Assembly (NCBI GenBank): GCA_045046875.1
Contig: JASFYY010000048.1
Location: 1-64,000, forward strand
Source: Verrucomicrobiota bacterium
GTDB lineage: Bacteria; Verrucomicrobiota; Verrucomicrobiia; Verrucomicrobiales; DEV007
Direction of reading: 5' to 3'
DNA length: 64,000 nucleotides
This document shows, in pieces, positions 1-14,595 of the stretch. Every line of letters starts with the position of its first letter. Within the stretch, counting starts at the first letter, position 1. The notes below the pieces were generated by a model. That model did not search any database. It was given only the letters and a program-made list of their open reading frames with translations, and was not told the DNA's origin. The translations under genes and the position numbers were made by a program.

Positions 1-96
1 CGTTGTCGTCATCGTTGTCGTCATCGTTGTCGTCATCGTTGTCGTCATCGTTGTCGTCATCGTTGTCGTCATCGTTGTCGTCATCGTTGTCGTCAT
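1..96. repeat. Perfect 12-bp tandem repeat (CGTTGTCGTCAT)x8 or more, encoding DDDN on the minus strand
   Basis: Eight exact copies read directly; probably continues beyond the window edge. Confidence 0.97.
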
Positions 97-652
97 CGTC
101 GTCAGCAACATAAGTCGCGCCACGATCAATGATCCAGCCAATGTTTGGCTGCACGCCTTCACGATAAACGATTTGATCGGTTACCAGCTCACCAGTGATT
201 CCTGAATCACCTTCGGTGTCGCTGTCGTCGTCACCGTCGTCGTCATCGTCGCCGTCGTCGTCGTCGTCGTCGTCGTCGTTATCATCATCGCCGTCGTCGT
301 CGTTATCGTCGTCGTTATCGTCGTCGTTATCGTCGTCGTTATCGTCGTCGTTATCTGCAGCAAAAGCGCCTTCGTAACCTTGCTTAGCCGCCATCAGCTT
401 TACGCCTACTTCTTCTTTTTTAGCAGGTCTGCTAGGTGGCAGGGATCCAGATTGTCCAATAGTTCTTCCGAGGTTGTGTGTATCAACGAAAGAATCACCG
501 CCCACCTGATATCCACTATTGAATACAGATTTGGATGCATATAAATCGGTCACGTCTTGTCCGGGCTCAATCACCCTGGACACGGCCTGACTTGGCAAAA
601 TAGAAATAGCGAATATCGCCATTCCTACCATTAACTTTGTCGTTATTTTCAT
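1..652 (-). CDS. Secreted Asp-rich (DDDN)n repeat protein, 3'-partial (runs off the window start)
   Basis: Manual translation from ATG at 652: MKITTKLMVGMAIFAISILPSQA (Sec-like signal), about 75 aa unique, an about 45-aa D/N/G tract, TGELVTDQIVYREGVQPNIGWIIDRG, then (DDDN)n to base 1 with no stop. Absent from the ORF track because no stop falls in the window. Confidence 0.85.
   Translation of the reverse strand, partial: MKITTKLMVGMAIFAISILPSQAVSRVIEPGQDVTDLYASKSVFNSGYQVGGDSFVDTHNLGRTIGQSGSLPPSRPAKKEEVGVKLMAAKQGYEGAFAADNDDDNDDDNDDDNDDDNDDDGDDDNDDDDDDDDGDDDDDGDDDSDTEGDSGITGELVTDQIVYREGVQPNIGWIIDRGATYVADDDDDNDDDNDDDNDDDNDDDNDDDNDDDNDDDN
218..355. repeat. Asp-codon low-complexity tract including (CGTTATCGTCGT)x4.5
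   Basis: Copies at 301-354 plus degenerate TCG/TCA runs; minus strand reads DNDDDNDDD...DDGDDDSD. Confidence 0.93.
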
Positions 653-1320
653 TGTTGTTATTTTTGTCTTTCTTGGTTGTCTTCTTTTTCTTTCCGTCTC
701 GGTCAAATTCTCTCTGCGCTCCCCTCAATCATCCAAAAGAAGCTTTGTTCGTTTCGAACAAAAGCTTTCCAGGGAATAATTTTGATGTTTCACAAGGTCG
801 GGGTTCATCGTTTTTAACAAATTTTTCAATAAAGATATAAATTCTGGCCTAAAGAGCCTGTATAGCCGCCTGCCCTTCTATTTGATCGAGAATATCGATT
901 GAGTTTTTCAAGACAAGCTTTTTTTGCACTTTTTTTAAGAAAGTTTCCAATTTCACCCCTTTTTTAAGACCGTTTGGCTTTAAATCCCCATTAAAGAAGA
1001 AAGTTCCCAATTTGAACACTTGGAAAGGAGTTTGATTCATGGGGGCTTTTTCAATCACTAAAAGACAGATTATTAAGGCCTGAAATTAAATACAAGCCTT
1101 TTTTGCATTTTTTTATGTTTTTTTTGCTATATCCCCCTCAGGACTATTGTTATTGAGATGGATTACCCTGAAAATCCGGTTCCCGATGATCCATTCGGCT
1201 TGCTGCCCAGCCCCCGCCTCAAGCGATTAAAGTCACAGGATTCGTTTTTTGCTTGTATTCCAAACGACTTTCCCAACAGTCTATCCTCAACACACGCAAA
1301 AGCAGCTGCTCCATCTCTCT

Positions 1321-2478
1321 ATGAAATTTCTCAAAAACCTCTTCAAATCAAAACCAAAAATTTACTGTGATCGTAAGGCTGAATGTGCCGCCAAGGCTTT
1401 CAAACTACAAGAACTGCCCTTGAATCACGATGCCAACAAAGCTGAGATGCTATGGATCAGAAAAGGTTACCGCGCGCTGATGCCGCTGCTTGCCCCCAAC
1501 CAACTGATCAACCACTTCCCCAATGAGGGAGCTGTTATCAACAAGGGTTATCTCACCCAGACCCTGAAAGCCTATCAGGAACTCGGCGAAGACAAGGAGG
1601 TCAGCATCGACGACCTCTACCCTGAGAGTTATTGCCTCTACGAGCCGGAAGATCGCAAACGCTTTTTTGATCAACTGCCAAAAGTCGACAGCCGGGATAA
1701 TATCTGGATATACAAACCAGGCAACAACTCCCGTGGCAGAGGTATCGAAATCATGTGGCGCACCGGAAAGCTAAGAAAAAAATATGGCAATCTGAAAGAC
1801 CAATTTATTTCCAGCAAGGACGAACAGGGTATTATCCAGCGCTACATAAAAAACCCGATGCTGCTGAACGAGCGGAAATCGGAGATCCGGGTGTATTGGT
1901 TACTGGCCAGCCTGAACCCTCTCAGGGTATTACTCTTTGATGAAGGAACCGTGCGACTGAACTCCCTGCCCTACCAGCTCGATCAGTTCGACAATCAACT
2001 GATCCACGTCACCAATGTCTACCAACAATACAAACACCCTGACTTCGACCCCAGCGTGGTTCTGAAATGGTCTTTTGCCGAGCTTGACCGTTACCTTCTT
2101 GCGCAAAAAAAAGTAACGGATGAGCATTTCACCAAGAACATCTTGATGCCCAAATTGAAAAAATACCTGGCTTTTGTCGCAAAAGCCGGGCGCAAGGGAT
2201 TTAATAAAAAATACCCCGAACAAGGAGAATGTTTCGGAGTCTATGGTGCCGATGTGATCCTCGATGACCAGCTGAACCCCAACATCAGCGAAATCCAAAA
2301 AGGACCAGGGCTGAGCTTCAGCGATCCGATCAAAAAGAACATCATTCCTCCTATGTTGGGAGAAGCTGCACGGATCATGTTCGAGATCCGCGAAGCACGC
2401 ATCAATAACAAACCTTTACCCGATCTCAAAAACAGGGATCGCTATCAATGGGTCATCAATGAAGCAGCAAATTTATGA
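1321..2478 (+). CDS. Tubulin-tyrosine ligase/TTLL-like ATP-grasp ligase
   Basis: TTL-family motifs in the correct order: INHFPNEGAVINKGYL, YPESYCL, WIYKPGNNSRGRGI, IIQRYIKNPMLL, RKSEIRVY, EGTVR, HVTN, FGVYGADVILDDQLNPNISEIQKGP. ATG 1321 preferred over TTG 1249. No signal peptide seen. Confidence 0.85.
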   Translation: MKFLKNLFKSKPKIYCDRKAECAAKAFKLQELPLNHDANKAEMLWIRKGYRALMPLLAPNQLINHFPNEGAVINKGYLTQTLKAYQELGEDKEVSIDDLYPESYCLYEPEDRKRFFDQLPKVDSRDNIWIYKPGNNSRGRGIEIMWRTGKLRKKYGNLKDQFISSKDEQGIIQRYIKNPMLLNERKSEIRVYWLLASLNPLRVLLFDEGTVRLNSLPYQLDQFDNQLIHVTNVYQQYKHPDFDPSVVLKWSFAELDRYLLAQKKVTDEHFTKNILMPKLKKYLAFVAKAGRKGFNKKYPEQGECFGVYGADVILDDQLNPNISEIQKGPGLSFSDPIKKNIIPPMLGEAARIMFEIREARINNKPLPDLKNRDRYQWVINEAANL

Positions 2479-2481
2479 GTC

Positions 2482-2510
2482 TCGACAAGCTCAAACAAAA
2501 AGTGTAGCGT
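2482..2510 (+). promoter_or_regulatory. Possible sigma70-type promoter upstream of pepM
   Basis: TCGACA-N17-TAGCGT in the 83-nt gap between the TTL-like gene and pepM. Confidence 0.3.
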
Positions 2511-2561
2511 CACACCCAGCAATCTGCTAAAAGAAAACCAACCCCACTTCCAACCATACAC

Positions 2562-3467
2562 GTGAGCCAATCAACTACTTCCTCCTCATCCTCCCCCGGC
2601 GGGTTAAAAAAACTTCTACTCTCTCCGGAATTAGAGTTTTTAATGGAGGCTCACAGTGGTCTCAGTGCAAAAATCGTAGAAGAGGCTGGTTTCAAAGGCA
2701 TCTGGGCCAGCGGACTGGCCATATCGGCGACATTGGGAGTGCGCGACTGCAACGAAGCCAGTTGGACGCAGGTTCTGGATGCCGTCGAATTCATGCGGGA
2801 TGCCTCGACCCTGCCTATCTTGCTCGACGGGGACTCCGGATTCGGTGATTTTAATATTGTGCGGCGCTTGATCCTCAAATTGGAGCAGCGAGGAATAAAC
2901 GGGGTCTGTATAGAAGACAAACTCTACCCCAAAAGAAACTCCTTTATAGAATGCGATCAAACGGTTTGTGACGCAGATGCCTTCACCGGAAAAATCAAAG
3001 CCGCCAAAGACACTCAGAAAGATAATGACTTCTGTGTGGTCGCCCGTTTGGAGGGTTTTATCGTTGGCTTGCCATTTGAACAAGTCATGGAACGCGCCCA
3101 CATGTATGCTGATGCCGGGGCGGACGCCATTCTGGTACACAGCAAAAGAACCGATGCGGAACAAATCCTGGCTTTCACTGACATCTGGGATCGCCCCACG
3201 CCGCTGGTGGTGGTACCAACCACTTATAATAGCACTCCGACTGAAGTATTTGCGAAGGCCGGGGTGAGTCTGGCGATCTGGGCCAACCACAACTTGCGAA
3301 CTTCGATCACCGCGATGCAGGACACCTGCCGCCAAATATACGAAGCGCAATCTACTCTCAAGGCATCGGAAAACATCGCATCGGTGAAGGAAGTCTTTCG
3401 TTTGACCGATATGGAGGAACTGGCCGCTGCCGAGAAACATTACCTCTCAGGATCCGGCGCTGAATAA
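2562..3467 (+). CDS. pepM: Phosphoenolpyruvate mutase
   Basis: Diagnostic EDK-X5-NS motif (EDKLYPKRNS), plus EAHSGLSA, GIWASG, DGDSGFG and WANHNLR; followed by ppd. Confidence 0.97.
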   Translation: MSQSTTSSSSSPGGLKKLLLSPELEFLMEAHSGLSAKIVEEAGFKGIWASGLAISATLGVRDCNEASWTQVLDAVEFMRDASTLPILLDGDSGFGDFNIVRRLILKLEQRGINGVCIEDKLYPKRNSFIECDQTVCDADAFTGKIKAAKDTQKDNDFCVVARLEGFIVGLPFEQVMERAHMYADAGADAILVHSKRTDAEQILAFTDIWDRPTPLVVVPTTYNSTPTEVFAKAGVSLAIWANHNLRTSITAMQDTCRQIYEAQSTLKASENIASVKEVFRLTDMEELAAAEKHYLSGSGAE

Positions 3468-3494
3468 AAACCAAAACCTCTAGCTTCCCGGGCC

Positions 3495-4655
3495 ATGATC
3501 CAATCCTCGTCGTTCCTCGAGCCCATGTCTGCCCTCGGGTATTCATTTTATTCAGGTGTTCCCTGTTCATTTCTGAAGCCCTTCATCAACTCGGTCATCA
3601 ATTCGGAAAGCTTGACCTATGTCGGAGCGGCCAGTGAAGGTGAAGCCGTAGGCATCACATTGGGAGGCTATCTGGCTGGGGAAAAAACGGTGACCATGTG
3701 CCAGAATTCAGGCTTGGGAAACACGGTGAACCCACTGAGTTCTCTTAATTCTCCTTTCAAAATCCCCACCCTACTGATCACCACTTGGCGCGGCGAACCG
3801 GGGCTGCAAGATGAACCCCAGCACGAATTGATGGGACAAATCACCCACCAACTGCTCGACACCCTGCAAATCCCCTGGCTCCCTTTCCCTGATACAAAAG
3901 AAAAAATCCCGGAGGTCATCGAAGAAGCCGATGCCTACATGAATGAGCAACAACTGCCATTTGCCCTGGTTTTAAGTAAAGGAGTGGTCGAAAGCTGCCC
4001 GCTGGACCCACAAAAAAGCTGCCCTCCAGTGGACTGCCACCAACACATCCAGGCCTTTTCCCCGTCTCAAAACCAACTGACCCGCACCCAGGCGATTGAA
4101 CAAATTCTGCAACAGGGCTCGCTGACTGATGCGATCATTGCCACCACAGGGAAAACCGGACGCGAGCTGTTCACCGTCGATGATCGCGACAGCAACCTTT
4201 ACGTCGTGGGCGGCATGGGTACCGCTGCAGCGATCGGACTGGGGATCAATCTGGTACTGCCCGAGCAGCGAGTGATCGTTCTCGATGGCGATGGTGCCGC
4301 CTTGATGAAACTGGGTGCACTGGCCACCATTGGGAACCGGCAGCCCGAAAACCTGCTCCACATCATCCTCGACAACGAAGTCCATGACTCCACCGGGGGA
4401 CAGGCAACCGTTTCGCCCACCACTCAGTTTGCCGCGATTGCCGCCGCTGCAAATTATAAAAATGTCTACACCGCACAGAACCAACAGCAACTGAATGACT
4501 GTCTGGCTGACGAAAAACAACGCCAGGGTCCCAGTTTACTGCACCTCAAAATACGCCCCGGCTCGCCCGAAAAACTCGGCCGGCCGACAATCAAACCTCC
4601 CCAGGTGAAAGAGCGTTTTATGGATTTTTTAGCGTCCATGTCCACCCCTCGCTGA
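3495..4655 (+). CDS. ppd: Phosphonopyruvate decarboxylase (TPP-dependent)
   Basis: GVPCSFLK, EGEAVG, QNSGLGN, RGEPGLQDEPQH, TTGKTGRELF, DGDGAALM...DNEVHDSTGGQ; 27 nt after pepM. Confidence 0.96.
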   Translation: MIQSSSFLEPMSALGYSFYSGVPCSFLKPFINSVINSESLTYVGAASEGEAVGITLGGYLAGEKTVTMCQNSGLGNTVNPLSSLNSPFKIPTLLITTWRGEPGLQDEPQHELMGQITHQLLDTLQIPWLPFPDTKEKIPEVIEEADAYMNEQQLPFALVLSKGVVESCPLDPQKSCPPVDCHQHIQAFSPSQNQLTRTQAIEQILQQGSLTDAIIATTGKTGRELFTVDDRDSNLYVVGGMGTAAAIGLGINLVLPEQRVIVLDGDGAALMKLGALATIGNRQPENLLHIILDNEVHDSTGGQATVSPTTQFAAIAAAANYKNVYTAQNQQQLNDCLADEKQRQGPSLLHLKIRPGSPEKLGRPTIKPPQVKERFMDFLASMSTPR

Positions 4656-4656
4656 T

Positions 4657-5784
4657 ATGCCAAAGCCAGAGCGTAAATGTTTGTTCACCCCGGGGCCACT
4701 CAACACCAGTGATGCCGTGCGCCAGGCGATGTTACTGGATAAGGGCTCGCGAGAACCGGCCTTTATCCAAAGTGTAAAAAACGTCCGCCAAAACATTCTG
4801 AAAATAACGGATCTCGATCCAGACGGACTTTACACTGTCGTCCCGATGCAAGGCAGCGGAACTTTTTCCATCGAAGCCGCCATCGGCACATTCACCGCAA
4901 AAAATGCAAAACTCCTGATCCTGGTGAACGGGGCTTACGGCAGACGCATGGTGAGCATCGCCGAGCACTTGGGCATCGACGTGCAAAGCCTCGAATTTGA
5001 AGAAACCGAGGCCATTTGCCCGCTAAAAGTAGCTGCTCATCTAAAGCTCCATCCCGACATCAGCTTGGTCGCGACCGTTCATTGTGAAACCACCACCGGC
5101 ATAATGAACCCTCTCGAAAAACTAGGCGAAGTGACCGCCGCTGCGAGTGCCCTCTTCATGGTCGATGCCATGAGCAGTTTTGGCGGTATCAAAATCGATT
5201 TCAGCAAATGCCGGATTGATTGCCTGGTCTCCTCCGCCAACAAATGCCTGGAAAGTGTGCCGGGCTTGGGATTTGTCATCGCAAAAAAAACACTTTTGCA
5301 ATCAGCGCAAGGACAAGCCAGAAGCCTGAGCTTTGATCTCCACGCCCAATGGCAGGGCCTGGAAAACAACGGCCAATTCAGATTCACCCCACCCACCCAT
5401 GTCATTCTGGCTTTGGAAAAAGCACTCGAAGTTTTGACTCACGAAGGCGGCATCGAAGCTCGCTCTGAACGTTATCACAACAATCGCCGAATATTAATGT
5501 CAGGCATGACCCGTCTCGGGTTCAGACCTGTCATCGAAGACCGTTTGCAAAGCCCTGTCATCGCCACCTTTCACCACCCCAAAGACTCTCGTTTTAAATT
5601 TACGCCTTTTTATCAATGGCTGGCCGAGCGCGACTTGATCATTTATCCAGGCAAGGTGAGCCGCATCGACAGTTTCCGTATAGGAACCATTGGCGATCTG
5701 CAGTCGCAGGATTTCCATCACCTGCTGGAAAGCATCGAAGAATACCTGAAGCTCACAGGGATTGATTTGCCGTTGAAAAATTAG
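4657..5784 (+). CDS. aepZ: 2-aminoethylphosphonate aminotransferase (AepZ/PhnW family, class V PLP)
   Basis: LFTPGPLNTS, QGSGT, NGAYGRRM, HCETTTG, DAMSSFG, SSANKC, QFRFTPPTH, IYPGK; 1 nt after ppd, so the biosynthetic direction is likely. Confidence 0.93.
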   Translation: MPKPERKCLFTPGPLNTSDAVRQAMLLDKGSREPAFIQSVKNVRQNILKITDLDPDGLYTVVPMQGSGTFSIEAAIGTFTAKNAKLLILVNGAYGRRMVSIAEHLGIDVQSLEFEETEAICPLKVAAHLKLHPDISLVATVHCETTTGIMNPLEKLGEVTAAASALFMVDAMSSFGGIKIDFSKCRIDCLVSSANKCLESVPGLGFVIAKKTLLQSAQGQARSLSFDLHAQWQGLENNGQFRFTPPTHVILALEKALEVLTHEGGIEARSERYHNNRRILMSGMTRLGFRPVIEDRLQSPVIATFHHPKDSRFKFTPFYQWLAERDLIIYPGKVSRIDSFRIGTIGDLQSQDFHHLLESIEEYLKLTGIDLPLKN

Positions 5785-5876
5785 GCTGGCCAGCCAATAG
5801 TCTTTCGAAAACGACACGGTTCTGCTGAGCCCGGAAAAACAAACTGCGTCCATCCCCCTCAAATCGCAATCCAATC

Positions 5877-6464
5877 ATGGCACAAAACCCTCCAGTTAAA
5901 AAAAACTCTTCCCGCAAGCGTTGGATTCAATTTCACGCCTACCTCTCCGTTTTCTTTTTCCCCTTTGCCATTGCCTACACCCTCACCGGCGCACTCTATA
6001 TCTGGGGGGATTTGCCCACCCTCGACAAAACCAATCTGACCCTCTACGATCTGGAACCCAAATCCCCCGCGACTCTTGAGAAGGTCGAAGAGCTCATCCG
6101 GGAGCAGTGCGAAAAAAACCAATGGCCTCTTCCCTCCGGGGAAATCAGAAAAGATGGCAAGGAGTTCAAATGGGGCTCGACCAAAACCCATCAGGTCAAA
6201 TACAAAGCTTCTCGCTCCACCCAAGGCAAAGCCTATCTCACCTACCTCAAAGCCACCCTCTACGGCAGGGTGCTGAACTTTCACAAGGGCAAAGGTGGAA
6301 AATTTCTCGACGTGCTGGGCACGGCCTTCGCTCTTTTGCTGCTCGTATCCTACCTTTCAGGAGTTTACCTCGCCTTCAAATCTTCTGGACTGCGCAACAA
6401 TACGATCATCGCTTTCATTTTAGGCTTTGTGACTCTCACCCTCGCCATTTATTCAGGGTTTTAG
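5877..6464 (+). CDS. PepSY-associated TM-helix membrane protein
   Basis: WIQFHAYLSVFFFP...LTG N-terminal helix, LNFHKGK, then two more TM helices ending LSGVY. Confidence 0.6.
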   Translation: MAQNPPVKKNSSRKRWIQFHAYLSVFFFPFAIAYTLTGALYIWGDLPTLDKTNLTLYDLEPKSPATLEKVEELIREQCEKNQWPLPSGEIRKDGKEFKWGSTKTHQVKYKASRSTQGKAYLTYLKATLYGRVLNFHKGKGGKFLDVLGTAFALLLLVSYLSGVYLAFKSSGLRNNTIIAFILGFVTLTLAIYSGF

Positions 6465-6548
6465 TTTTTGCTACTCAAAAACCCCGCTGATTAAAAACGA
6501 CGCACCCTGCCCAAGCATCTCAGATTTTCTACCTACTCCAGCGGATCG

Positions 6549-6986
6549 CTATTTTTTGCTTTTTTTGCTGCCGGTATTGTCCATGAATACCTTGGCCCCG
6601 GCCAAACCCAGCACACCAATGATGATGATTTGACGGCCTCGCACCCGTTGTCCGGTTTTTGCTCCGTGAATGATCATCGCCAGGAATACCAGCGCCATCA
6701 CAATCATTCCAATTCCGATAACCGCCTTGAGTTTGTTCGTAGTCGCTTTTTTCACCTCGATCTCATTCTGCTCTTCCACACGATCAAAGATCAAGACATA
6801 ATCTGCCGAAAATGTTCCTTCCGTGCCAAGCTTGCGAATGTCCTGCTCCTGGGTAATCTCACCCGTTCCGACCAAGCCCTCTATTTCTTCAAAAGTATAA
6901 GGCCCCTTATCCGGACGGATCACTGCATCGTCGTCATTTTCATCTTCATATTCATCTTCGTCGTAAACGATTTCGTAAATTTTCAT
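6549..6986 (-). CDS. Membrane protein with GYF_2 (DUF4339)-like domain and acidic N-terminus
   Basis: GPYTFEEIEGLVGTGEIT motif, two C-terminal TM segments, N-terminal YDEDEYEDENDDD. Confidence 0.6.
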   Translation of the reverse strand: MKIYEIVYDEDEYEDENDDDAVIRPDKGPYTFEEIEGLVGTGEITQEQDIRKLGTEGTFSADYVLIFDRVEEQNEIEVKKATTNKLKAVIGIGMIVMALVFLAMIIHGAKTGQRVRGRQIIIIGVLGLAGAKVFMDNTGSKKSKK

Positions 6987-7199
6987 GAGCCCGGAGTTTC
7001 AAGTGTCCCCAGAATCAGTCATAACCAAACTCTATTCATTCGTCAACCACATTGAATACGGAATCCAGATCATCCAACCTTCAAGACGACAAGCCATACC
7101 CCCAGCCATACGCTCAAGTATGAAAAACCACCGTATGAAAAACCGCCTCCCCCGGAAGCAACATGCCCTGATCAATCTTTTTATGCTGTAAATGAAAAA

Positions 7200-9329
7200 T
7201 CAATCATCGTCATCGTCAGAATCATCTTCATCATCGCCATCCCCTAAACCACCACCACCACCACCACCGTTAGCAGCGATAGTAACCGCTGTTCCCTGGA
7301 TTTCCTCAATCGTTACCAACCAAGTCATGCGATTGATGGGAGGCAACTCAGCAGGACTAACGATCTGAGACAAATCCGCGCTTATCTTGTTAGCAGAAAT
7401 AGCTTGCCCCGCTACGGTTAAATTAGCTCCCCCCTTGAGATCTAAAGGATTAACCACCGTGCCATCGTCCGCATTTAAACTGGTAATTTGTCCCGACATC
7501 GAAATAGCATCAATAGCTCCATCTACTGTCCCAAAATGTTTGTGCGACGCAAACACGGACACCGGCGGATAGTAGTCTCCGCTTGGCAAACCCGCATTAT
7601 TCGGCACATCCGATGCCAATACTGGTTTTTGATTGAAGTTCTCGGCAAAATAAACTTTATAATCAGTGACAATCGACAGGCCTTTGGTAAAGATCGTTAA
7701 GTCCTCCGCCTGTCTAAAGACCACAGACATCTCCGCACTGTCGTCAATGAGACTGGGCAAAACAACCGATGGATCAGCCGAGGTGTCAGCTGAAATAGAG
7801 AGCGAATTATTCCGGGTAACGTCTCCAGGGCTTAAACCCATACCTGCTAAATAATCAGGTATTTCATCCAAGTTTACAGCCAAAGCCGGATGCCCGGTCG
7901 CTCCAAGATTTTCCCAGTAAAACGGCAATGATTGCGGACCATTAGCAGGAACATCATTTGCAAAATTGACCCAGGTTCCATCTGTAGACTTATAATTTTT
8001 AACCAGCGTTCCTGCTCCTTGTTGACAAGTGAAACGAATCTCAATTGGCCGCGATGTCTGCTGCTTAGTGACTTCCAGTTTCATCTTGCACTGCAAGGCA
8101 CCCATCGCGTATTCATACCAACCAGTGTCGGAAAGAGTGTTCGTTTGAGCTACCGCTCCGCTGGTGCGAATAAACTGATCTCCCTGACTGAGCGGCAGAA
8201 CCGCTACCCTGCCTGAATCACTCGCCACCGATGCTCCGTAAAAATCCGAACCACTTGAAGCCCACCGCGTTTCACGCGTCCCCAATCTATCAAAGCCCGC
8301 AGTAATCGACATCCCCCCCCCCACCGAATTTGTGCCATTCAATTTGACTGAACGCCTGGCGGAAACCCTTGAAGAAGCCCCTAACAAACTAAGGTTTTTT
8401 GCTTCCACTTCTCCAGCAAACACTCCCCCTCGAATAGTAGTATTCTGCCAATTAGTTCCATCTGCAAAAGTTCCCACTTGCAATTTTCCCGCGGCAGACA
8501 AAGCCATTTGCTCAGGCACCTCATAAATCGAGAGTATGTAGTTTTTTTTCATCGTAGGCATCGCATCCGGCCCTGTGCCCCCGCCTCCAAAAGTTAATGA
8601 AAAGGCCCACCAATTACGTTTAGCTACAAACTTGCCACTCTGGTTCGAAAGGCCAAAACGAATATCTGGATAATCAATGATGTTATACACAGGATAACCC
8701 GTCGTCGCATCTGCCGAAGCCCCTAACCCTGGCGTTGAAGAAGGGTACTTTTTATTTAGAGAAATGATCGGATATTCCAGCTCATTAGAATAGCTGCCAG
8801 AGTAAGCTAAAGGGGGGGGAAGCTTTCCTCCTGTCAACCCGTCGGCCAGCAAACCGGTATTCGAAACATTACCAGGCCCCATCAACGAACCATCTCCCGC
8901 AACAACTCCCACAATTTGATTCGTAGAAGACAAATTCATATCCCCTGTATTTGCGTTAATAATACCCGATATACCAAAACCGTCGACTACAGCTGAATTT
9001 AAAGCCCCTCCGGCATTGGACAAAGTGATCGCATCAGTGAAAATTTGATCCCAGGAATAATTGGAAGCATTGCCTGCCGAATTTGGCATCATCGCGCCAA
9101 TCGCTTTATTTGGGACAACGTAAACCAAGGCCCTCAGCAGCGCGTCCTCTTTCTGCCGGTAATCAATCTTCACCTGGTTCATCACTTGCATTTCATGGGA
9201 ACGCATCCCCGTTCGAAACACAAACATCAAACTGAGCAATGCTGTAACTCCAATCACAGCCACCATGGCCATGGCCGCGTAACCCCGTGAATGCCCTCTA
9301 AAAAATGATCCCCTGACTTTTAACTTCAT
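7200..9329 (-). CDS. Large PilX/GspK-like prepilin-type protein with Gly linker and poly-Asp C-terminal tail
   Basis: Basic leader then G|YAAMAMVAVIGVTALLSLMFVF (no E5, as in PilX-type minor pilins); ends GGGGGGGLGDGDDEDDSDDDDD; ATGA overlap with the upstream gene. Confidence 0.7.
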   Translation of the reverse strand: MKLKVRGSFFRGHSRGYAAMAMVAVIGVTALLSLMFVFRTGMRSHEMQVMNQVKIDYRQKEDALLRALVYVVPNKAIGAMMPNSAGNASNYSWDQIFTDAITLSNAGGALNSAVVDGFGISGIINANTGDMNLSSTNQIVGVVAGDGSLMGPGNVSNTGLLADGLTGGKLPPPLAYSGSYSNELEYPIISLNKKYPSSTPGLGASADATTGYPVYNIIDYPDIRFGLSNQSGKFVAKRNWWAFSLTFGGGGTGPDAMPTMKKNYILSIYEVPEQMALSAAGKLQVGTFADGTNWQNTTIRGGVFAGEVEAKNLSLLGASSRVSARRSVKLNGTNSVGGGMSITAGFDRLGTRETRWASSGSDFYGASVASDSGRVAVLPLSQGDQFIRTSGAVAQTNTLSDTGWYEYAMGALQCKMKLEVTKQQTSRPIEIRFTCQQGAGTLVKNYKSTDGTWVNFANDVPANGPQSLPFYWENLGATGHPALAVNLDEIPDYLAGMGLSPGDVTRNNSLSISADTSADPSVVLPSLIDDSAEMSVVFRQAEDLTIFTKGLSIVTDYKVYFAENFNQKPVLASDVPNNAGLPSGDYYPPVSVFASHKHFGTVDGAIDAISMSGQITSLNADDGTVVNPLDLKGGANLTVAGQAISANKISADLSQIVSPAELPPINRMTWLVTIEEIQGTAVTIAANGGGGGGGLGDGDDEDDSDDDDD

Positions 9330-9922
9330 TCTCCTGTTCCTCCATAGGTAACCTGTTCACCATTCGGCCCGGTCAAGGTTACCAGTAGTATTCCGGTGTC
9401 GTCAGCAAAAGTCACAGTGCTCGCCTGTTGAGTGATCGTCCAATTCGGTGTCACGTTCCAAGCCCCATCAAAACTATAAAAATTCAACTTGGCTTCACCT
9501 GCCACAACTTCAAACGCCACAATCCCCTCATCATAACTCCCATCAGGGCTGCGAAAACTCAGACGCACAGCTTTGCCGTCGACATTAATACTTCCGGTAT
9601 TCGCTTTTGCGTTACCCACGGAAGAATAGATCCGGTAAGAATTTGCCTTACCAAAGATGCCGGTCAGCATATTATTAACCTGGGGGGCATCATCACGTAA
9701 AAAAGTATACGATTGCAATATTCTCATGAAGGTCACGTGAGACTGCAACATCATGATCAAAGCAGCCGCCAGCAGCATCAACATAGCCATCACCATTGAT
9801 ATTTCCACCAAGGTGAATGCGCCCATACGTTCCTTCCTAACAGTCACACCGCTATCACCTTGCCGACCGGCTAATGGCCTTAGTCGCCTTGCCTTTCTAC
9901 GACTGTGTTCCAGCAGTCTCAT
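9326..9922 (-). CDS. Prepilin-type N-terminal methylation domain protein (pseudopilin)
   Basis: Basic leader, A|FTLVEISMVMAMLMLLAAALIMML with E at +5; ATGA overlaps on both sides. Confidence 0.8.
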   Translation of the reverse strand: MRLLEHSRRKARRLRPLAGRQGDSGVTVRKERMGAFTLVEISMVMAMLMLLAAALIMMLQSHVTFMRILQSYTFLRDDAPQVNNMLTGIFGKANSYRIYSSVGNAKANTGSINVDGKAVRLSFRSPDGSYDEGIVAFEVVAGEAKLNFYSFDGAWNVTPNWTITQQASTVTFADDTGILLVTLTGPNGEQVTYGGTGE

Positions 9923-10413
9923 CGTGCTCTCAGAATAGTTCTGGATTTGATATAATCCCTGCCTGAAATTTTATAAGTCAGGTAAGACTGTAATTGATAC
10001 GCCTGCGAACTTGTGGGATTTGATGCCAACGTCCCCGTCCCCCCGTTAGCTGGAAGGTTGTTCGAAGCGGGGATCCGTGTGCGCCGCAGTGATCCGGTGA
10101 TTGCCCGCCCTCCTGGCAAAGAGCCTATCGTAACACCTGATACACTCACTGCTGGATAAGCTGGAAATAACGATCCTGCTGCCAAAAATCCATCTCCACC
10201 CTCAAAAGGCAAGCGTTTACCTAACGCCACCTCCCTGCTCATATACGCATCGGAGACTCCTTGTATCACCGTCCAGCGTTGCACACTGGTTACGGTCAGA
10301 GCTGACTTCAACAACAGTAGACTAACGACCAACATCGCCCCAAAACCGGCTGCCACCTCTATCAATACAGAGGCCCGGATTTGGACTTGGCGATGTGCGC
10401 TATCAACCTTCAT
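9919..10413 (-). CDS. Pseudopilin-like protein
   Basis: IRA|SVLIEVAAGFGAMLVVSLLLL with E5 and a hydrophobic helix; coupled to the next gene. Confidence 0.65.
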   Translation of the reverse strand: MKVDSAHRQVQIRASVLIEVAAGFGAMLVVSLLLLKSALTVTSVQRWTVIQGVSDAYMSREVALGKRLPFEGGDGFLAAGSLFPAYPAVSVSGVTIGSLPGGRAITGSLRRTRIPASNNLPANGGTGTLASNPTSSQAYQLQSYLTYKISGRDYIKSRTILRAR

Positions 10414-10472
10414 GAACGTTTACCTAAAACTCTACTTAATTCCTATTTGGAATAGATCTCTGGTCAGGTTTT

Positions 10473-11630
10473 TTATTTAGCTCCAATTTGCCCTTTAACG
10501 CTTAAAGAACGATTCAGAGTGAATTTGATAACAGCCAGTCTTTCACTGCCCCCATTGGTGAAATCTGCAGGCATGTCTGAAGCAATGATTTCAAGCGTGT
10601 ATACGCCACTCCCTCCCTGCTCAAAAAATGGCTGCAAATACGACTCTTTAATGGTAATGCCATCAGCAGAATAAATCGTTTTAGTATCCTGTGGTTCCAC
10701 AGCACCTTCCGCATTCAACATGGTGACAGGCACCACCCCGCCTACGGTGCCCAATGAAGGCTCTCCCTTATAAATTTGCACGTAGGTTTTGGAATTTGGA
10801 TAAACCGAAGTGTAATGGACAAAAATGTCGCGCACTCTATCATTAAACACCTGCCCCTCGGCAAAGGGTTCCTGACCGCCATCATCAGCTTGCTGCCTGA
10901 ACAATCCTGTTCCTACTGGAAATATTTTCACAATAGCTGATCCTACGTTCCACCGAGCTGAAACCGTTTCATCGGCATAAGAACGCATCTCAAACTTTTC
11001 TTCACCGTTCCTCAAGGTGATATCACTGGCGAAACCAGGCAAGCTGGGTCCGGTATAACTAAATGTGTCACTTCCAGTGAACACCAATGACTGCAGAGTC
11101 TGCTGGTTTTCCTGTTCCACCAAATAGCCTCCTGTAGTGGCCGGTGTTGCCAAATGTAAAAAATTCACCTCACGGGCTGCTCGCGGAGCAGTCAGATCGG
11201 TTAGCAAATTTGACACGGTGCCCGTTACGGTAAAAGGCTGATCTGCCCGAGTGCGATAAACCGGACGTTGCACGGTTTTTCCGCTCACTTGATCCGTCAC
11301 AGAACCAATCCAATCCTTGTCTTTGACATCAACATTAAAAACCCCCTTGGGCATATAAAGCCCAATCACCTTACTATCGACAAGGGTTTTGGTGCCCGCA
11401 TCATCGCCCTCTCCATCTGCCCACAATTCGAACAAAGCCCCTGTCCCCTCAATCGGAGCAGCCACCTGTTGTGAACCGGTATCGCCAAGATTATACATAA
11501 ACTGCACCGGCAAACCCGGATCCAAAGGAATCTGGCGAATCTCATTTGCCACCTCAGCATGTGCTGACATGCTAACTGCTGTCACAAAAGTTGCTAATAT
11601 TCCGGCTATGCCCATTTTTCTTATTTTCAT
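10473..11630 (-). CDS. Secreted hypothetical protein (beta-rich)
   Basis: Start reassigned to MKIRKMGIAGILATFVTAVSMSAHA (signal peptide, AxA) after an A-rich leader. Confidence 0.75.
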   Translation of the reverse strand: MKIRKMGIAGILATFVTAVSMSAHAEVANEIRQIPLDPGLPVQFMYNLGDTGSQQVAAPIEGTGALFELWADGEGDDAGTKTLVDSKVIGLYMPKGVFNVDVKDKDWIGSVTDQVSGKTVQRPVYRTRADQPFTVTGTVSNLLTDLTAPRAAREVNFLHLATPATTGGYLVEQENQQTLQSLVFTGSDTFSYTGPSLPGFASDITLRNGEEKFEMRSYADETVSARWNVGSAIVKIFPVGTGLFRQQADDGGQEPFAEGQVFNDRVRDIFVHYTSVYPNSKTYVQIYKGEPSLGTVGGVVPVTMLNAEGAVEPQDTKTIYSADGITIKESYLQPFFEQGGSGVYTLEIIASDMPADFTNGGSERLAVIKFTLNRSLSVKGQIGAK

Positions 11631-11703
11631 CTTATTATATTTTAGTTTTGTAGTTATCAACCAACCGCCTCTTTTAAAATGTCTTGTCATAAGGATTAAA
11701 CCC

Positions 11704-12696
11704 CTATTTTCCGTTCCCCTTTCGCGCTCGCGAACCATCGGATGCCACCGATCCAGCTACCACGCCGTCCTCCTCCTCCAGCTTTGCTTCAATTACCGAA
11801 ATTGGATTTTTATTGAAAACGGCTACTACCACTTTGCCGCCAATCATGAATGCTTTTTTTTCCTTATCTGAAATAGGGTCCTCCCCTTTGGCCGTCTGCC
11901 AACTCACCTCTCTGGTTGTCACAAATCGTGCATATTTTTTTATAAACTCAGGCCAGATCAACAACGCCCCCTTGGGCTTTTTCACCACCATTGCCGCCAA
12001 TTTTGTCGGTAAATTGATAACCGCTCCCTCCGGCACAACCGTGTGCTCGTCCCCTGCCACTAGAATGGTCGTACCATCATAATAATCTCTCTTTTTAGCA
12101 ATCCCTTTCGATTTGAGATCTTTCTTCAAAGGATTCACCCCCGACCGTTGTTTTTTCAGCTTGTGTGAAGATGCCTCTTTGGACAAACGCTCTGTCAACT
12201 CTGCCGCAGTGATTCGATCTCCACCTGGAGCCACTCCCTTTATTCGCGTGGGATCAACAAACGCATCGCCCTTCATGCTAAAGCCAGCATCACCCGGCAT
12301 TTTTGTAAATGTTCGCCCCTCATTGCTATGGGGAAGCTTCTTGATAAATTCTCCCCACTTTGCATCCCGCTGTAGCTCATTACGATTCTCAGGAGTCATT
12401 TTCTCAGTAGCTACCCGAGTGTCCAAATCGGCCATTTTGTTTAACTCGGCAATTGCCAAATTGCGCTCTTCCAAAGAAATCTGTCCGTCTTTATTCCGAT
12501 CCTGTCGATTCAGAAAATCAACCGCTTTGCCTTTTTCCAAGCCCGTAAGCGATCCATCCAAACTGGAATCGAACTTTCGGATCAAAAGCTTCTTAAATAG
12601 CCCCTCGCCTCCAACCCCTGCATCTTGAGCAAAAAGATCTCCTGCACCTCCGTAGGATATAACGATCAAAACCAATCCACAAAATAGATATTTCAT
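11704..12696 (-). CDS. Secreted protein with an EF-hand-like pair
   Basis: MKYLFCGLVLIVIS signal; DSSLDGSLTGLE and DRNKDGQISLEE loops. Confidence 0.65.
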   Translation of the reverse strand: MKYLFCGLVLIVISYGGAGDLFAQDAGVGGEGLFKKLLIRKFDSSLDGSLTGLEKGKAVDFLNRQDRNKDGQISLEERNLAIAELNKMADLDTRVATEKMTPENRNELQRDAKWGEFIKKLPHSNEGRTFTKMPGDAGFSMKGDAFVDPTRIKGVAPGGDRITAAELTERLSKEASSHKLKKQRSGVNPLKKDLKSKGIAKKRDYYDGTTILVAGDEHTVVPEGAVINLPTKLAAMVVKKPKGALLIWPEFIKKYARFVTTREVSWQTAKGEDPISDKEKKAFMIGGKVVVAVFNKNPISVIEAKLEEEDGVVAGSVASDGSRARKGNGK

Positions 12697-12797
12697 CGCC
12701 TTTTCCGATTTATTAACAGAGTCTGATCGCATCATATTGATCAGTTTCCCGAAGGTGCAGAAGTTTTTCATAACAACCAATTTAGTTATGTAACATC

Positions 12798-13451
12798 TTA
12801 TTGTTCGCCACGATCAATCACCCAGCTTATAACAGGCTGAGCACCTTCCTGGTAAACGATTTGCCCAGTAAGCAACTCCCCTGTTGGCTCTGGTTTATCT
12901 TTGATCAATGTACCAAGGATCTTCATATAACCATCTATATCCCTAGAGTTAGAGTCTATGATCCATTTCAGCTTAACGTTTTTGTTTTCAAACACTTTAG
13001 GAGTTCCCCTCAGCGAAGTTTGCACAGCCCCTTGATAACCTACCGCTGAAGTAGCAAAATATATAGATCCGCCATTCACCCATCCGCTTCCGTCATTGGC
13101 CTTACCTTTAAAGTTCCACTTTCCAACTTCCGAACACTGAAACACTCCAAATCCTCTTTCACTTGCATAAGCTTCTGAAAAAGTCTGCATGTGCCCGCCC
13201 CATGTATACCAACCAGGAACCCCATCAGCGTCAGCCAAAGCTTCTACGCCAATTAAGCTGAATCGATAAACTCCACCAAGATTAACTGTCTTAGTATATC
13301 TATCTGTAGTATTTTTATTTGCATCTGGAAGCGCGCTACTTGGCATGGTCGTCGAAACTCCAGGACCAAGCAATTGCAGCTCTGCCCGACTTGTTCCAAC
13401 AGACACCGCCAATACCCCCAGACCTATCATCAGTTTTTGTCTTATATTCAT
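12798..13451 (-). CDS. Secreted hypothetical protein, first gene of the pseudopilin cassette
   Basis: MNIRQKLMIGLGVLAVSVGTSRA signal; C-terminal TGELLTGQIVYQEGAQPVISWVIDRG motif shared with the 1..652 protein. Confidence 0.8.
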   Translation of the reverse strand: MNIRQKLMIGLGVLAVSVGTSRAELQLLGPGVSTTMPSSALPDANKNTTDRYTKTVNLGGVYRFSLIGVEALADADGVPGWYTWGGHMQTFSEAYASERGFGVFQCSEVGKWNFKGKANDGSGWVNGGSIYFATSAVGYQGAVQTSLRGTPKVFENKNVKLKWIIDSNSRDIDGYMKILGTLIKDKPEPTGELLTGQIVYQEGAQPVISWVIDRGEQ

Positions 13452-13990: not shown

Positions 13991-14557
13991 CTATTCCACC
14001 AGATCCATCAACGGAGACTTCTCACGGTGAGCGTCATGGCAAGTCGAACAGGATTGGGTCAATTTGCCAAATGCTGTTCTCGCCACCACTTGGTTTTTCT
14101 CCTCTGCAGCGGAAATGATCACTTGCGCGCAATATCTCAAAGTTTGCGTAGCGGCGCCTGACCACACTTCATCCGGACAACGGCCGTCCGACATCAGAAT
14201 AAAACTCGCCTCGCTCAATATTTCCGCCTGGGAAATCACTTCAGCCCACTCTTCCTCCGTTTTAAGGTTGCCTTTGAGCACCTTTCTCAAGGCTCCACAA
14301 TGCGGCCGGATCACACTTTTCATCACCGTGCTGGTCTTTAAAGGGCGCTTCTTGCCTTTTTTTCCTGCTTTTATTTCAGGCTTCGTCCCCTTATCTGCGT
14401 CGGCATTTATTTTTACAGGGATTTCAACCGCCTCAATTTTTTTTGCGGTAGACTTGCTCTTACTTTTATTATCATCTGCCAAAACATTCATCAAAGCGGC
14501 CCAACCAAATGTTACTATGTATAATATAGTAAAGTATCTCCCTATGTTTTTTTTCAT
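13991..14557 (-). CDS. Cytochrome c'-like (class II) protein
   Basis: Signal/anchor, helical body, C-terminal CSTCH heme motif. Confidence 0.75.
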   Translation of the reverse strand: MKKNIGRYFTILYIVTFGWAALMNVLADDNKSKSKSTAKKIEAVEIPVKINADADKGTKPEIKAGKKGKKRPLKTSTVMKSVIRPHCGALRKVLKGNLKTEEEWAEVISQAEILSEASFILMSDGRCPDEVWSGAATQTLRYCAQVIISAAEEKNQVVARTAFGKLTQSCSTCHDAHREKSPLMDLVE

Positions 14558-14595
14558 CTGTAACAATCTTTGATTGAATAATGTTAATCACCTAA

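Follow-up and report, generated by a model that had tools for sequence, protein, structure and literature searches.

In chaperone–usher pili, strands from a second polypeptide complete an Ig-like fold that is unfinished on its own; the subunits polymerise, and one strand is donated from an N-terminal extension. Subunits of the type V pilus (FimA/Mfa1 of Bacteroidota) are joined by strand exchange, each filling a groove of its neighbour with C-terminal strands; this assembly requires lipoprotein precursors and the cleaving off of an N-terminal strand by proteolysis. Sorting signals of the PEP-CTERM, LPXTG and GlyGly-CTERM types have a fixed place at the C-terminus, where the motif is followed by a hydrophobic helix, then a basic tail.

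The closest described system is the pairing of PilC/PilY1 with PilK, in which a β-sheet of the minor pilin PilK/GspK is completed by the ~10 C-terminal residues of a large adhesin, and in which the strand may be supplied in trans (PilC/PilY1) or in cis (type II secretion system PilK homologues and CpaL). In Kingella kingae, the C-terminal tails of PilC1 and PilC2 join the core minor pilin complex by β-strand augmentation (mSphere 2026, PMC13711793); conserved short tails tie two paralogous, variable adhesins to the scaffold of one pilus.

Here, we describe a gene cassette in a 64,000-nucleotide stretch of DNA (the window) from a Verrucomicrobiota bacterium, beginning at base 1 of its contig (C48), in which two secreted proteins – A and B – share a 26-residue motif predicted to form a two-strand hairpin. 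We consider it likely, if by no means assured, that this hairpin is a docking element of head proteins that completes the split N-terminal sandwich of a further secreted protein, p385, and that A and B head two paralogous cassettes.

The cassette in the window

All features given below lie on the reverse (−) strand. The cassette runs in the order head, EF-hand-like protein, p385 and three pseudopilin-like proteins. Its head, protein B (12798..13451; described from an AF2 model, VIA-align comparisons and orthologues found at 77–83% identity), comprises a signal peptide, a jelly-roll-like β-sandwich core (residues ~31–183), a Pro-rich linker (KPEP) and the C-terminal motif. Modelled alone, B has a mean pLDDT of 65.6 and an ordered core; residues 192–217, which include most of the motif (190–215), show no secondary structure, their pLDDT staying under 50. 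VIA-align matches the core to jelly-roll domains (best Z 8.7), the aligned ranges mostly ending by residue 192 and at most at 199, so that most of the motif lies outside them; Foldseek matches of the B model reach a TM of 0.36 or less.

The second gene (11704..12696) encodes a secreted protein that we call EF-hand-like from a Pfam EF-hand_5 match below the cut-off (E 0.0078; 16.1 bits vs 25.9), a match to calerythrin (E 0.026) and two D-x-[DNS]-x-D-G loops, found by eye and absent from homologues outside the genus. Conservation of this protein across the family is confined to its C-terminal domain, and its homologue adjoins the head gene in 8/9 and 20/20 loci examined. The third gene (10473..11630) encodes p385, the predicted acceptor of the motif: a 385-residue protein with a Sec-type signal peptide, tandem Ig-like β-domains (from the model of a fused homologue) and a C-terminal tail, ..GQIGxK, conserved in the alignment. 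Sequence searches of Pfam, NCBIfam and the PDB give no match to it.

The remaining genes encode a 164-residue protein with an N-terminal hydrophobic helix (9919..10413; placed by synteny, without a family match, and conserved in both cassettes of congeners), a 198-residue protein with a G-AFTLVE N-terminus (9326..9922) and p709 (7200..9329), a large protein of 709 residues with an acidic Gly/Asp C-terminal tail, the last two placed by conserved synteny. 'Pseudopilin' is used for them only as a resemblance, judged from sequence: tested against Pfam N_methyl (PF07963/TIGR02532 type), the 198-residue protein scores E 0.28 (11.3 bits vs a cut-off of 21.2), and the 164- and 709-residue proteins have no N_methyl prepilin match. 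For p709, the ESM Atlas gives large clusters from Verrucomicrobiota to which no family is assigned, together with one named after the PilX family (score 0.93), a lead only, as PilX_N is found on just 14% of its members.

A motif shared by two otherwise unrelated proteins

Protein A (2..652 in the ORF list) is a partial coding sequence whose C-terminus lies beyond the contig start. A signal peptide and an N-domain of ~75 residues – without a homologue at near lengths in a set of 5.8 billion proteins – are followed by the motif TGELVTDQIVYREGVQPNIGWIIDRG (119..196; 50.2 bits against the 17-row profile A5), set between two tracts read from the ORF translation: an Asp-rich one preceding it (203..355) and an Asp/Asn-rich one after it (2..103), which continues past the contig edge. 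The copy in B, TGELLTGQIVYQEGAQPVISWVIDRG (12807..12884), found by BLASTP and profile search, stands among the last residues of the protein, which ends two residues past it. Neither A nor B has a Pfam or NCBIfam match.

The earlier note on this DNA, made from the sequence itself, had reported 19/26 identities between these two stretches, similar signal peptides and otherwise unrelated proteins, and a pairwise BLASTP comparison bears out all three: the motif aligns with 19/26 identities (E 2e-11), the signal peptides form a second local match (13/35 identities, E 4e-6), and nothing else is returned. A weaker internal copy in B, VFENKNVKLKWIID, which the same note had proposed, does not survive scrutiny, scoring 0.1 and −3.5 bits over four residues with two profiles, no better than chance. 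Within the whole genome, a profile of the two copies retrieves just A and B from 128,123 six-frame ORF fragments (E 1.7e-18 and 2.9e-18; next-best match E 0.15), and a broader profile of 48 sequences finds the same two ORFs.

The motif core, G-x-L-x9-G-x2-P-x3-W, is the sole conserved element of the cassette head gene. Its five invariant columns are the same across an alignment of 17 sequences – B-type heads, A, one p385 fusion and N-terminal-type heads – and in the B family, too, the invariant positions cluster in the motif (G191, L193, G203, P206 and W210). Portability of the two-strand element, as first suggested, is borne out by its placement: heads of the jelly-roll B type have it at the C-terminus behind a Pro-rich linker, those of another genus have it at the N-terminus, A has it between Asp tracts, and p385 can carry it by fusion. 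As the signal peptides of A and B are alike too, the two proteins, judged on their sequences, are better seen as diverged paralogous heads that have kept only signal peptide and hairpin than as unrelated proteins that acquired a tag.

Linkage to p385 and alternation between cis and trans

Among 134 genomes of the family, profile A5 finds the motif in 56, all of them within the 58 that encode the p385 body; these counts overstate independence, because the genomes are kin. The two p385-positive genomes without a profile match are G004, which has a fused motif variant (E 0.0029 in another search), and G136, which is 70% complete. Read from the two tables of sites, 62/66 motif sites lie on the same contig as a p385 site and within 5 kb of it, a tight linkage to the cassette. 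At 20/20 further p385 loci, hand-picked from the list of p385 matches, the EF-like gene and p385 are directly preceded by an ORF with the motif. Synteny as strict as this demonstrates a function in common, not physical contact.

Two paralogous cassettes are present in congeners. In one of these, G005, the motif carrier of cassette 2 is an orthologue of A (96% identity over the N-domain), in which ~35 Asp/Asn-rich residues follow the motif before 'AS' and a stop, and the second cassette comes directly after it. The genome studied here (G000) has the same protein A with cassette 2 unassembled, the contig ending inside the poly-Asp gene. The presumed partner of A, the cassette 2 paralogue p385', was not found in this assembly, so the link between the two comes from one congener. 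Comparative genomics thus upholds the proposal that the poly-Asp protein belongs to such a cassette, but assigns it to a second, paralogous one and not to that of the window. The two motif proteins had also been described as bracketing a phosphonate locus, an arrangement present in this genome and one congener; in another congener, a lone β-helix gene lies between the two cassettes.

In cassette 2 of two further congeners, G001 and G004, it is p385' that carries the motif. No head gene precedes the EF-like gene of G001, and upstream of the G004 fusion there is no EF-like gene in the 1.18 kb that the contig holds. In all, the motif stands N-terminal to p385 in ten database proteins of 461–502 residues, those of G001 and G004 included.

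Predicted docking of the hairpin on p385

Both the hairpin fold of the motif and its interface with p385 are predictions, drawn from two kinds of model. The AF2 model of a p385-fused homologue is all-β, and its Foldseek matches are multi-Ig-domain proteins. In this model, the motif forms strands at residues 49–54 and 66–72, with 10-residue blocks averaging 57–85 in confidence, and the N-terminal unit of p385 has five strands (residues 130–185). The raised confidence of the hairpin suggests that it touches this unit.

Complex modelling covered one pairing, p385 residues 26–385 with a 31-residue motif peptide, using small, unpaired alignments (10 and 21 rows). In this complex with the 10473..11630 protein, one of those that the earlier note had proposed to predict, the motif docks, with an ipSAE of 0.71 (0.69, 0.71 and 0.71 in the individual runs) against a best of three of 0.02 for the controls; the runs share at least 76% of contacts, with a partner pLDDT of 73 or more. 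The score mark is reached by 116/157 solved complexes and 2/215 mismatched pairs, counts that are only a rough guide here because our own alignments were used; as p385 has no solved homologue by sequence, a pass through memorised structures is unlikely. The predicted docking surface is the small five-strand N-terminal unit, residues 29–91 (11358..11546), which includes the invariant D85. Of all contacts, those that W24 of the 31-mer, the invariant Trp, makes with p385 residues 48, 51–53, 69, 85 and 31 have the lowest error. Docking by strand complementation, one of the functions first suggested for the motif, is thus favoured by the models, with the N-terminal unit of p385, the one partner modelled, as the predicted acceptor in place of the pseudopilin-like proteins.

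In the mechanism that we favour, the hairpin of a head protein would insert into the N-terminal unit of p385, itself only five-stranded, and turn it into a seven-strand sandwich. The hairpin would be donated either in trans, by A and B as separate heads, or in cis, in the p385 fusions, and the rest of the head would be variable cargo – Asp tracts in the case of A, a jelly roll in that of B, and different domains in further heads. We infer that a fibre with the pseudopilin-like proteins as building blocks would display the complex.

Alternative explanations

The hairpin might instead bind the C-terminal domain of the EF-like protein or p709, or let heads self-associate, the p385 model being a false pass. 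The EF-like gene, after all, directly adjoins the head in 8/9 and 20/20 loci, two of the 215 mismatched pairs also passed the calibration mark, and fusion to p385 could occur as well if the motif needed mere proximity to bind something else. Yet it is p385 that the motif is fused to, although the EF-like gene usually lies between head and p385; the G004 fusion does without an EF-like gene in the upstream sequence available, and the hairpin is more ordered in the p385 fusion model, all of which makes a different partner improbable. We regard as quite improbable, too, that the hairpin is not a p385 ligand at all but a sorting or recognition signal for an export or assembly machinery (pseudopilin-like, or of a type II/IV system), fused p385 then carrying it for its own export. 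The hairpin is indeed always found in Sec-signal proteins of a cassette with pseudopilin-like genes, and flexible or low-complexity linkers flank it. However, its position varies (N-terminal, internal or C-terminal), unlike that of position-bound signals; most p385 and all EF-like proteins of the same cassette are without it; and the complex model, which scores far better than the controls, places it on p385. Signals of the PEP-CTERM, LPXTG or GlyGly-CTERM type in particular can be set aside, given the variable position and the lack of a hydrophobic helix after the motif; A continues past it into Asp tracts, and there is no match to an NCBIfam sorting domain.

A partnerless relic of common descent – the best-conserved strands of an ancestral head domain – would account for the similar signal peptides of A and B and for their heading paralogous cassettes, and in N-terminal-type heads the β-rich sequence right after the motif could make it the first strands of a domain. 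Against this stand the isolation of the motif between Asp tracts in A, its place in B behind a Pro linker and beyond the jelly-roll core, its lack of order there when the monomer is modelled, the persistence of five invariant residues while all flanking sequence was replaced, and its move onto p385; we find a relic decidedly unlikely. The motif is short, at 26 residues, which might invite an explanation by chance or composition, but this is negligible in view of the pairwise E value, the two matches among all ORF fragments and the occurrence in 56/134 genomes, always with the same neighbours.

Comparison with described systems

Docking of the hairpin on p385 would resemble the PilC/PilY1–PilK pairing in that a short peptide of a secreted non-pilin completes a β-sheet in another protein of the cassette, in that heads and p385 fusions mirror its trans and cis forms, and in that the genes lie beside minor-pilin-like genes. 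The parallel is an analogy of mechanism rather than a sign of homology. The donor here is a two-strand hairpin of 26–31 residues at variable positions in proteins of ~200–500 residues, not the end of a large adhesin; the predicted acceptor is Sec-exported and Ig-like, not a minor pilin; and no cassette protein matches PilY1, PilK or GspK families in Pfam or NCBIfam. We therefore do not place the cassette in that family. The K. kingae system shares the tying of variable adhesins to a scaffold by conserved short elements, but unites two paralogous adhesins on one pilus, whereas here two paralogous cassettes have a head each; it otherwise differs from this cassette as PilC/PilY1 does.

As in chaperone–usher pili, an incomplete Ig-like fold is predicted to be completed by strands of another polypeptide, and Foldseek, run on the fusion model, lists the donor-strand fusion CfaE–CfaB (3f83) at rank 45. 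Two strands are donated here, however, and polymerisation is not indicated; membership is rejected, as the 12 proteins scanned in window positions 1–16.4 kb (Pfam, NCBIfam) include no chaperone or usher domain. The likeness to type V pili would lie in C-terminal strands filling a groove in another subunit; nothing like their lipoprotein precursors or N-terminal strand removal is seen in this cassette.

Implications

A wider and rather doubtful extension is that the cassette encodes an undescribed pilus-tip-like display of Verrucomicrobiota. In this arrangement, p385 would be a three-Ig-domain stalk with a split sandwich, taking hairpins from fast-evolving, interchangeable heads, so that one scaffold could present a lectin-like jelly roll or a poly-Asp tract binding cations or minerals. 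The ..GQIGxK tail of p385 would plug into p709, as PilY1 does into PilK, making a two-step strand-addition chain from fibre to cargo.

Docking of the hairpin on p385 would extend β-strand addition, just described for PilY1/PilK, to a new donor–acceptor pair that occurs naturally both in cis and in trans within one genus, and it proposes a specific, mutable interface between the invariant Trp of a 26-residue hairpin and a five-strand unit of p385. Should this binding be real, hairpin and unit would be a small natural split-domain pair, usable as a protein-docking tool. For the organisms themselves, the analysis offers a testable role for six genes without a curated family above threshold, present in 58/134 genomes of one verrucomicrobial family: variable cargo can probably, on the evidence of the models, be attached to one scaffold by a hairpin plugging into p385, which would explain how surface cargo is swapped quickly while the assembly parts are kept.

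A motif shared by two secreted proteins

Proteins A and B are both secreted and both encoded on the minus strand. A (2..652, partial), the poly-Asp protein, consists of a signal peptide, an N-terminal domain of ~75 residues, an Asp-rich tract, the motif (119-196) and an Asp/Asn tract that runs past the start of the contig; B (12798..13451) carries its copy (12807-12884) two residues before the end of the protein. BLASTP aligns the 26-residue motif with 19/26 identities (E 2e-11) and the signal peptides with 13/35 (E 4e-6), and returns no further match between the two proteins outside these parts. For the N-terminal domain of A, a protein database search gave no homologues at near lengths.

When the own assembly (5.59 Mb in 163 contigs, the window being the initial 64 kb of contig C48) was searched as 128,123 six-frame ORF fragments, a profile built from the two copies found A and B alone (E ~1e-18), with the third-best match at E 0.15; a profile of 48 sequences again found just these two. 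The similarity described in the earlier note is thus real, and the prospect that it arose by chance is negligible. The same two profiles rule out a genome-wide tag. With the profiles, the weaker internal copy once read in B reaches just 0.1 and -3.5 bits and is unsupported.

The cassette that begins with B

B is the product of the first of six tightly packed minus-strand genes. It is followed by an EF-hand-like protein (11704..12696), by p385 (385 residues, 10473..11630) and by three proteins of 164, 198 and 709 residues with N-terminal hydrophobic helices, which complete the run. No Pfam or NCBIfam family was found above cut-off for A, B, p385, the EF-hand-like protein or the three pseudopilin-like proteins. 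The label 'pseudopilin' itself rests on three weak points – a G-AFTLVE-like N-terminus, a sub-threshold N_methyl match (E 0.28) and a lead in the ESM Atlas. The 709-residue protein (7200..9329) leads there to a PilX-named cluster (score 0.93, with the family on 14% of members), and p385 to Ig-like proteins, with scores below 0.9. Searched by sequence, the PDB held no solved relative of p385, and the best match of the EF-hand-like protein had an E-value of 0.026. Within the genus only, the latter has two EF-hand-like loops close to its N-terminus; its homologues elsewhere retain just the C-terminal domain of ~110 residues.

Two cassettes in congeners, and a motif supplied in trans or in cis

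The congeners G001 and G005 each have two paralogous cassettes, the first of which is orthologous to that of the window and headed by a B orthologue. In G005, the orthologue of A is split between contigs: its N-terminal part ends the contig with cassette 1 and the phosphonate genes, and its C-terminal part, which ends another, is directly followed by the genes for EF-hand-like, p385 and three pseudopilin-like paralogues. The overlap of these contig ends within the gene (L012 8944-9243; L082 7888-8411) gives the order cassette 1, then the phosphonate locus, then A and cassette 2, which makes A the head of cassette 2. In the own assembly, all six cassette proteins match only themselves by blastp; as its contig also ends inside A, cassette 2 is here either unassembled or lost. 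Both this contig (at window position 1) and those of G005 break inside the Asp-codon repeat of the gene.

Between the 709-residue proteins of cassette 2, identity is 62% (G001 versus G005), and to those of cassette 1 it is 50-53%; for p385 it is 35-39% in every between-cassette comparison. The secreted cassette proteins diverge much faster than the 709-residue ones.

In G001, no head gene precedes the EF-hand-like gene of cassette 2, its place being taken by a plus-strand beta-helix gene. The p385 paralogue of this cassette is a protein of 496 residues, with the motif and a linker of the type NNGHGNN..DGVDSSNPG..DDE fused to its N-terminus. The same motif-p385 fusion occurs in a third congener, G004, and ten database proteins in all (461-502 residues) are built in this way, with signal peptides closer to those of head proteins than to those of p385. 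A Pfam hit of the G001 fusion to a clostridial receptor-binding domain (E 0.17) was taken as noise.

Distribution and linkage to p385

A narrow profile of 10 rows matched 13 of the 134 genomes of the host's family, and nine new loci were examined. The EF-hand-like gene adjoins the motif-bearing ORF in eight of them; the remaining locus is that of the G004 fusion, whose contig has no EF-hand-like gene in the 1.18 kb present upstream. Three of the nine encode a second type of head, in which the motif lies right behind the signal peptide. The motif is a portable element. Across 17 sequences – from B-type heads, A, one p385 fusion and N-terminal-type heads – its core aligns without gaps, with G, L, G, P and W in five invariant columns.

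The p385 profile matched 71 of the 134 genomes with an E-value of 1e-5 or lower: the body of the protein in 58 (best E 4.8e-36 or better) and the linker part alone in the other 13. In twenty further p385 loci, chosen from this list from distinct genomes and not examined before, a motif-bearing ORF (23-43 bits) lies directly upstream of the EF-hand-like gene and p385 in every case. A combined motif profile matched 56 of the 134 genomes, each of which is one of the 58 with p385, and the family holds no genome with the motif and without p385, counts that overstate the support because the genomes are kin and not independent. The two p385 genomes without a match are G004, which has a variant motif (E 0.0029 with the narrow profile), and G136, a genome 70% complete. 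As we read the tables, 62 of 66 motif sites have p385 no more than 5 kb away; the others are A itself and sites in G093, G086 and G063, on other, mostly small contigs. The search of this genome and its relatives, as the earlier note had suggested it, therefore links the motif to the cassette.

Outside the family, in 400 genomes drawn from the rest of the phylum, the narrow profile (31 positions) gave no match with an E-value of 0.001 or lower; a query with the whole of B found one B-like head with a variant motif in G029, from another family of the order.

Some loci depart from the usual arrangement. At one (L063, G138:C10:39253-44300), three motif-bearing head-like ORFs of 284, 220 and 331 residues stand in tandem upstream of a single EF-hand-like and p385 pair, which suggests several alternative heads for one acceptor. 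At three loci from other genera (L069, L079 and L080), the three pseudopilin-like genes are divergent from the head, EF-hand-like and p385 genes rather than following them; the two trios are linked yet separable.

Predicted structures

Modelled alone with AF2 (mean pLDDT 65.6), B has an ordered beta-sandwich core (residues 31-183), and residues 192-217 – most of the motif, which spans 190-215 – fall below pLDDT 50 and have no secondary structure. The core matches generic jelly rolls alone (TM at most 0.36 in Foldseek, Z at most 8.7 in VIA-align), and no specific family can be named. In the AF2 model of the G001 fusion (mean pLDDT 72.8), the motif is predicted to form two strands (residues 49 to 54 and 66 to 72, where block means lie between 57 and 85), followed by a disordered linker, a small unit of five strands (130-185) and more beta domains; its Foldseek matches are multi-Ig-domain proteins at low TM. 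Together, the five strands of this unit and the two of the motif would make a sandwich of Ig size.

ESMFold2 was then given residues 26-385 of p385 with a 31-residue motif segment of B. The complex scored 0.71 (runs at 0.69, 0.71 and 0.71), compared with 0.02 for the best of three controls. In the calibration, 116 of 157 solved complexes and two of 215 mismatched pairs passed the mark, counts that hold roughly because our own alignments were used. Contacts agree to at least 76% between runs, and the pLDDT of the partner is at least 73. The predicted interface joins p385 residues 29-91 to motif residues 2-28, and the invariant Trp, W210 in B, makes the contacts of lowest error. The model supports binding of the hairpin to p385, as a prediction.

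Relation to known systems

Strand exchange in chaperone-usher and type V systems offers analogies only. The closest case is PilC/PilY1, whose C-terminus adds a beta-strand to minor pilins of the PilK family, in trans or in cis, according to excerpts of PMC13533445. The mechanism would be alike, but here the donor has two strands, its position varies, the predicted acceptor is not a pilin and no family matches. The PilC tails of Kingella, as excerpted from PMC13711793, are a related case that works alike; by the same tests, the present system is not a member.

The p385 family has a conserved C-terminal tail of its own (window 10473-10510, minus strand): SV..RGQIGTK is kept in most of 21 aligned sequences, and ..NGQVFSSE, at the C-terminus of distant ones, also fits. 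This tail (..GQIGxK) is coil in the AF2 fusion model; by analogy, it could act towards the 709-residue protein as that of PilY1 does.

A second portable module, NNGHGNNxDGVDSSNPGxGGGGPN...DDE, is found at N-termini, at C-termini (often then with a basic KKRGRRKK tail) or inside loops. It occurs in the G001 fusion (L009:232-1719), L004, L005, P0008 and many further proteins, as well as in a loop of the B-like core in G007 and in the N-terminal p385 unit in P0172, P0178, P0179 and P0188. In many of 164 search matches, to proteins of 87 to 1890 residues, it is the sole matched part. It has no Pfam family, and a literature search found no paper containing 'NNGHGNN'. A regex detects no copy in the own genome, where Asp tracts occupy equivalent places. 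The 709-residue protein ends in GGGGGGGLGDGDDEDDSDDDDD (window 7200-7270, minus strand) and its G001 orthologue in GNGNGDDGNNGHGNDPGGSDPSNPGGGG; as these ends differ, acidic and NNGHGN-type tails seem interchangeable in pseudopilin-like proteins too.

Neighbourhood of A and B

Between the cassette and A lie a 145-residue ORF and genes for a PepSY_TM protein, a PEP mutase, a TPP-dependent decarboxylase, a class-V aminotransferase and a TTL-family protein. The mutase, decarboxylase and aminotransferase (2562-5784, plus strand) make up the 2-aminoethylphosphonate biosynthesis triad. The two motif-bearing proteins were described as bracketing this locus. The triad lies between the two cassettes in the own genome and G005 but not in G001, so such bracketing is not conserved.

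The TTL-family gene (1249-2478, plus strand; Pfam TTL, E 4.6e-46) is divergent from A, and the pair is retained in G005 at 98% identity. With an amino-acid ligase of TTL type beside the acidic-tailed A, the tail might be modified after translation. Just upstream of B, and upstream of B in G001 and G005 too, a gene (13991-14566, minus strand) encodes a secreted cytochrome c'-like protein of 191 residues with a C-terminal CxxCH (Pfam Cytochrom_C_2, E 2e-4, below cut-off). In Myxococcus, a noncanonical cytochrome c stimulates calcium binding by PilY1, according to excerpts of PMC8833165; the parallel is a mere lead.

Mechanism and alternatives

The hairpin probably completes a split N-terminal sandwich of p385, and would be supplied in trans by the head proteins or in cis by the fusions. 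Among the alternatives, a different partner, or self-association, is a doubtful role for a motif that modelling places on p385 and that gene fusion joins to it. A sorting signal might be read from its presence in secreted proteins of a cassette with pseudopilin-like genes, and is unlikely for an element whose position varies and which the complex model places on p385. As for a mere relic of paralogy, the similar signal peptides of A and B and the paralogous cassettes that they head speak for it, and the five invariant residues amid otherwise changed flanks, with the presence of the motif on p385, make it improbable. Modelling and comparative genomics uphold docking or strand complementation, as first proposed, with two amendments: p385 is the acceptor that the models predict, and the cassette of the poly-Asp protein is a paralogous one.

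Among the papers listed by a literature search that combined Verrucomicrobia with minor pilins and strand complementation, none mentions Verrucomicrobia. The mechanism would be a modified form of a known one, beta-strand addition, and the cassette that uses it has no described family. Variable head cargo would thereby be tethered to p385 and, we infer, displayed on a fibre that the pseudopilin-like proteins help to build.
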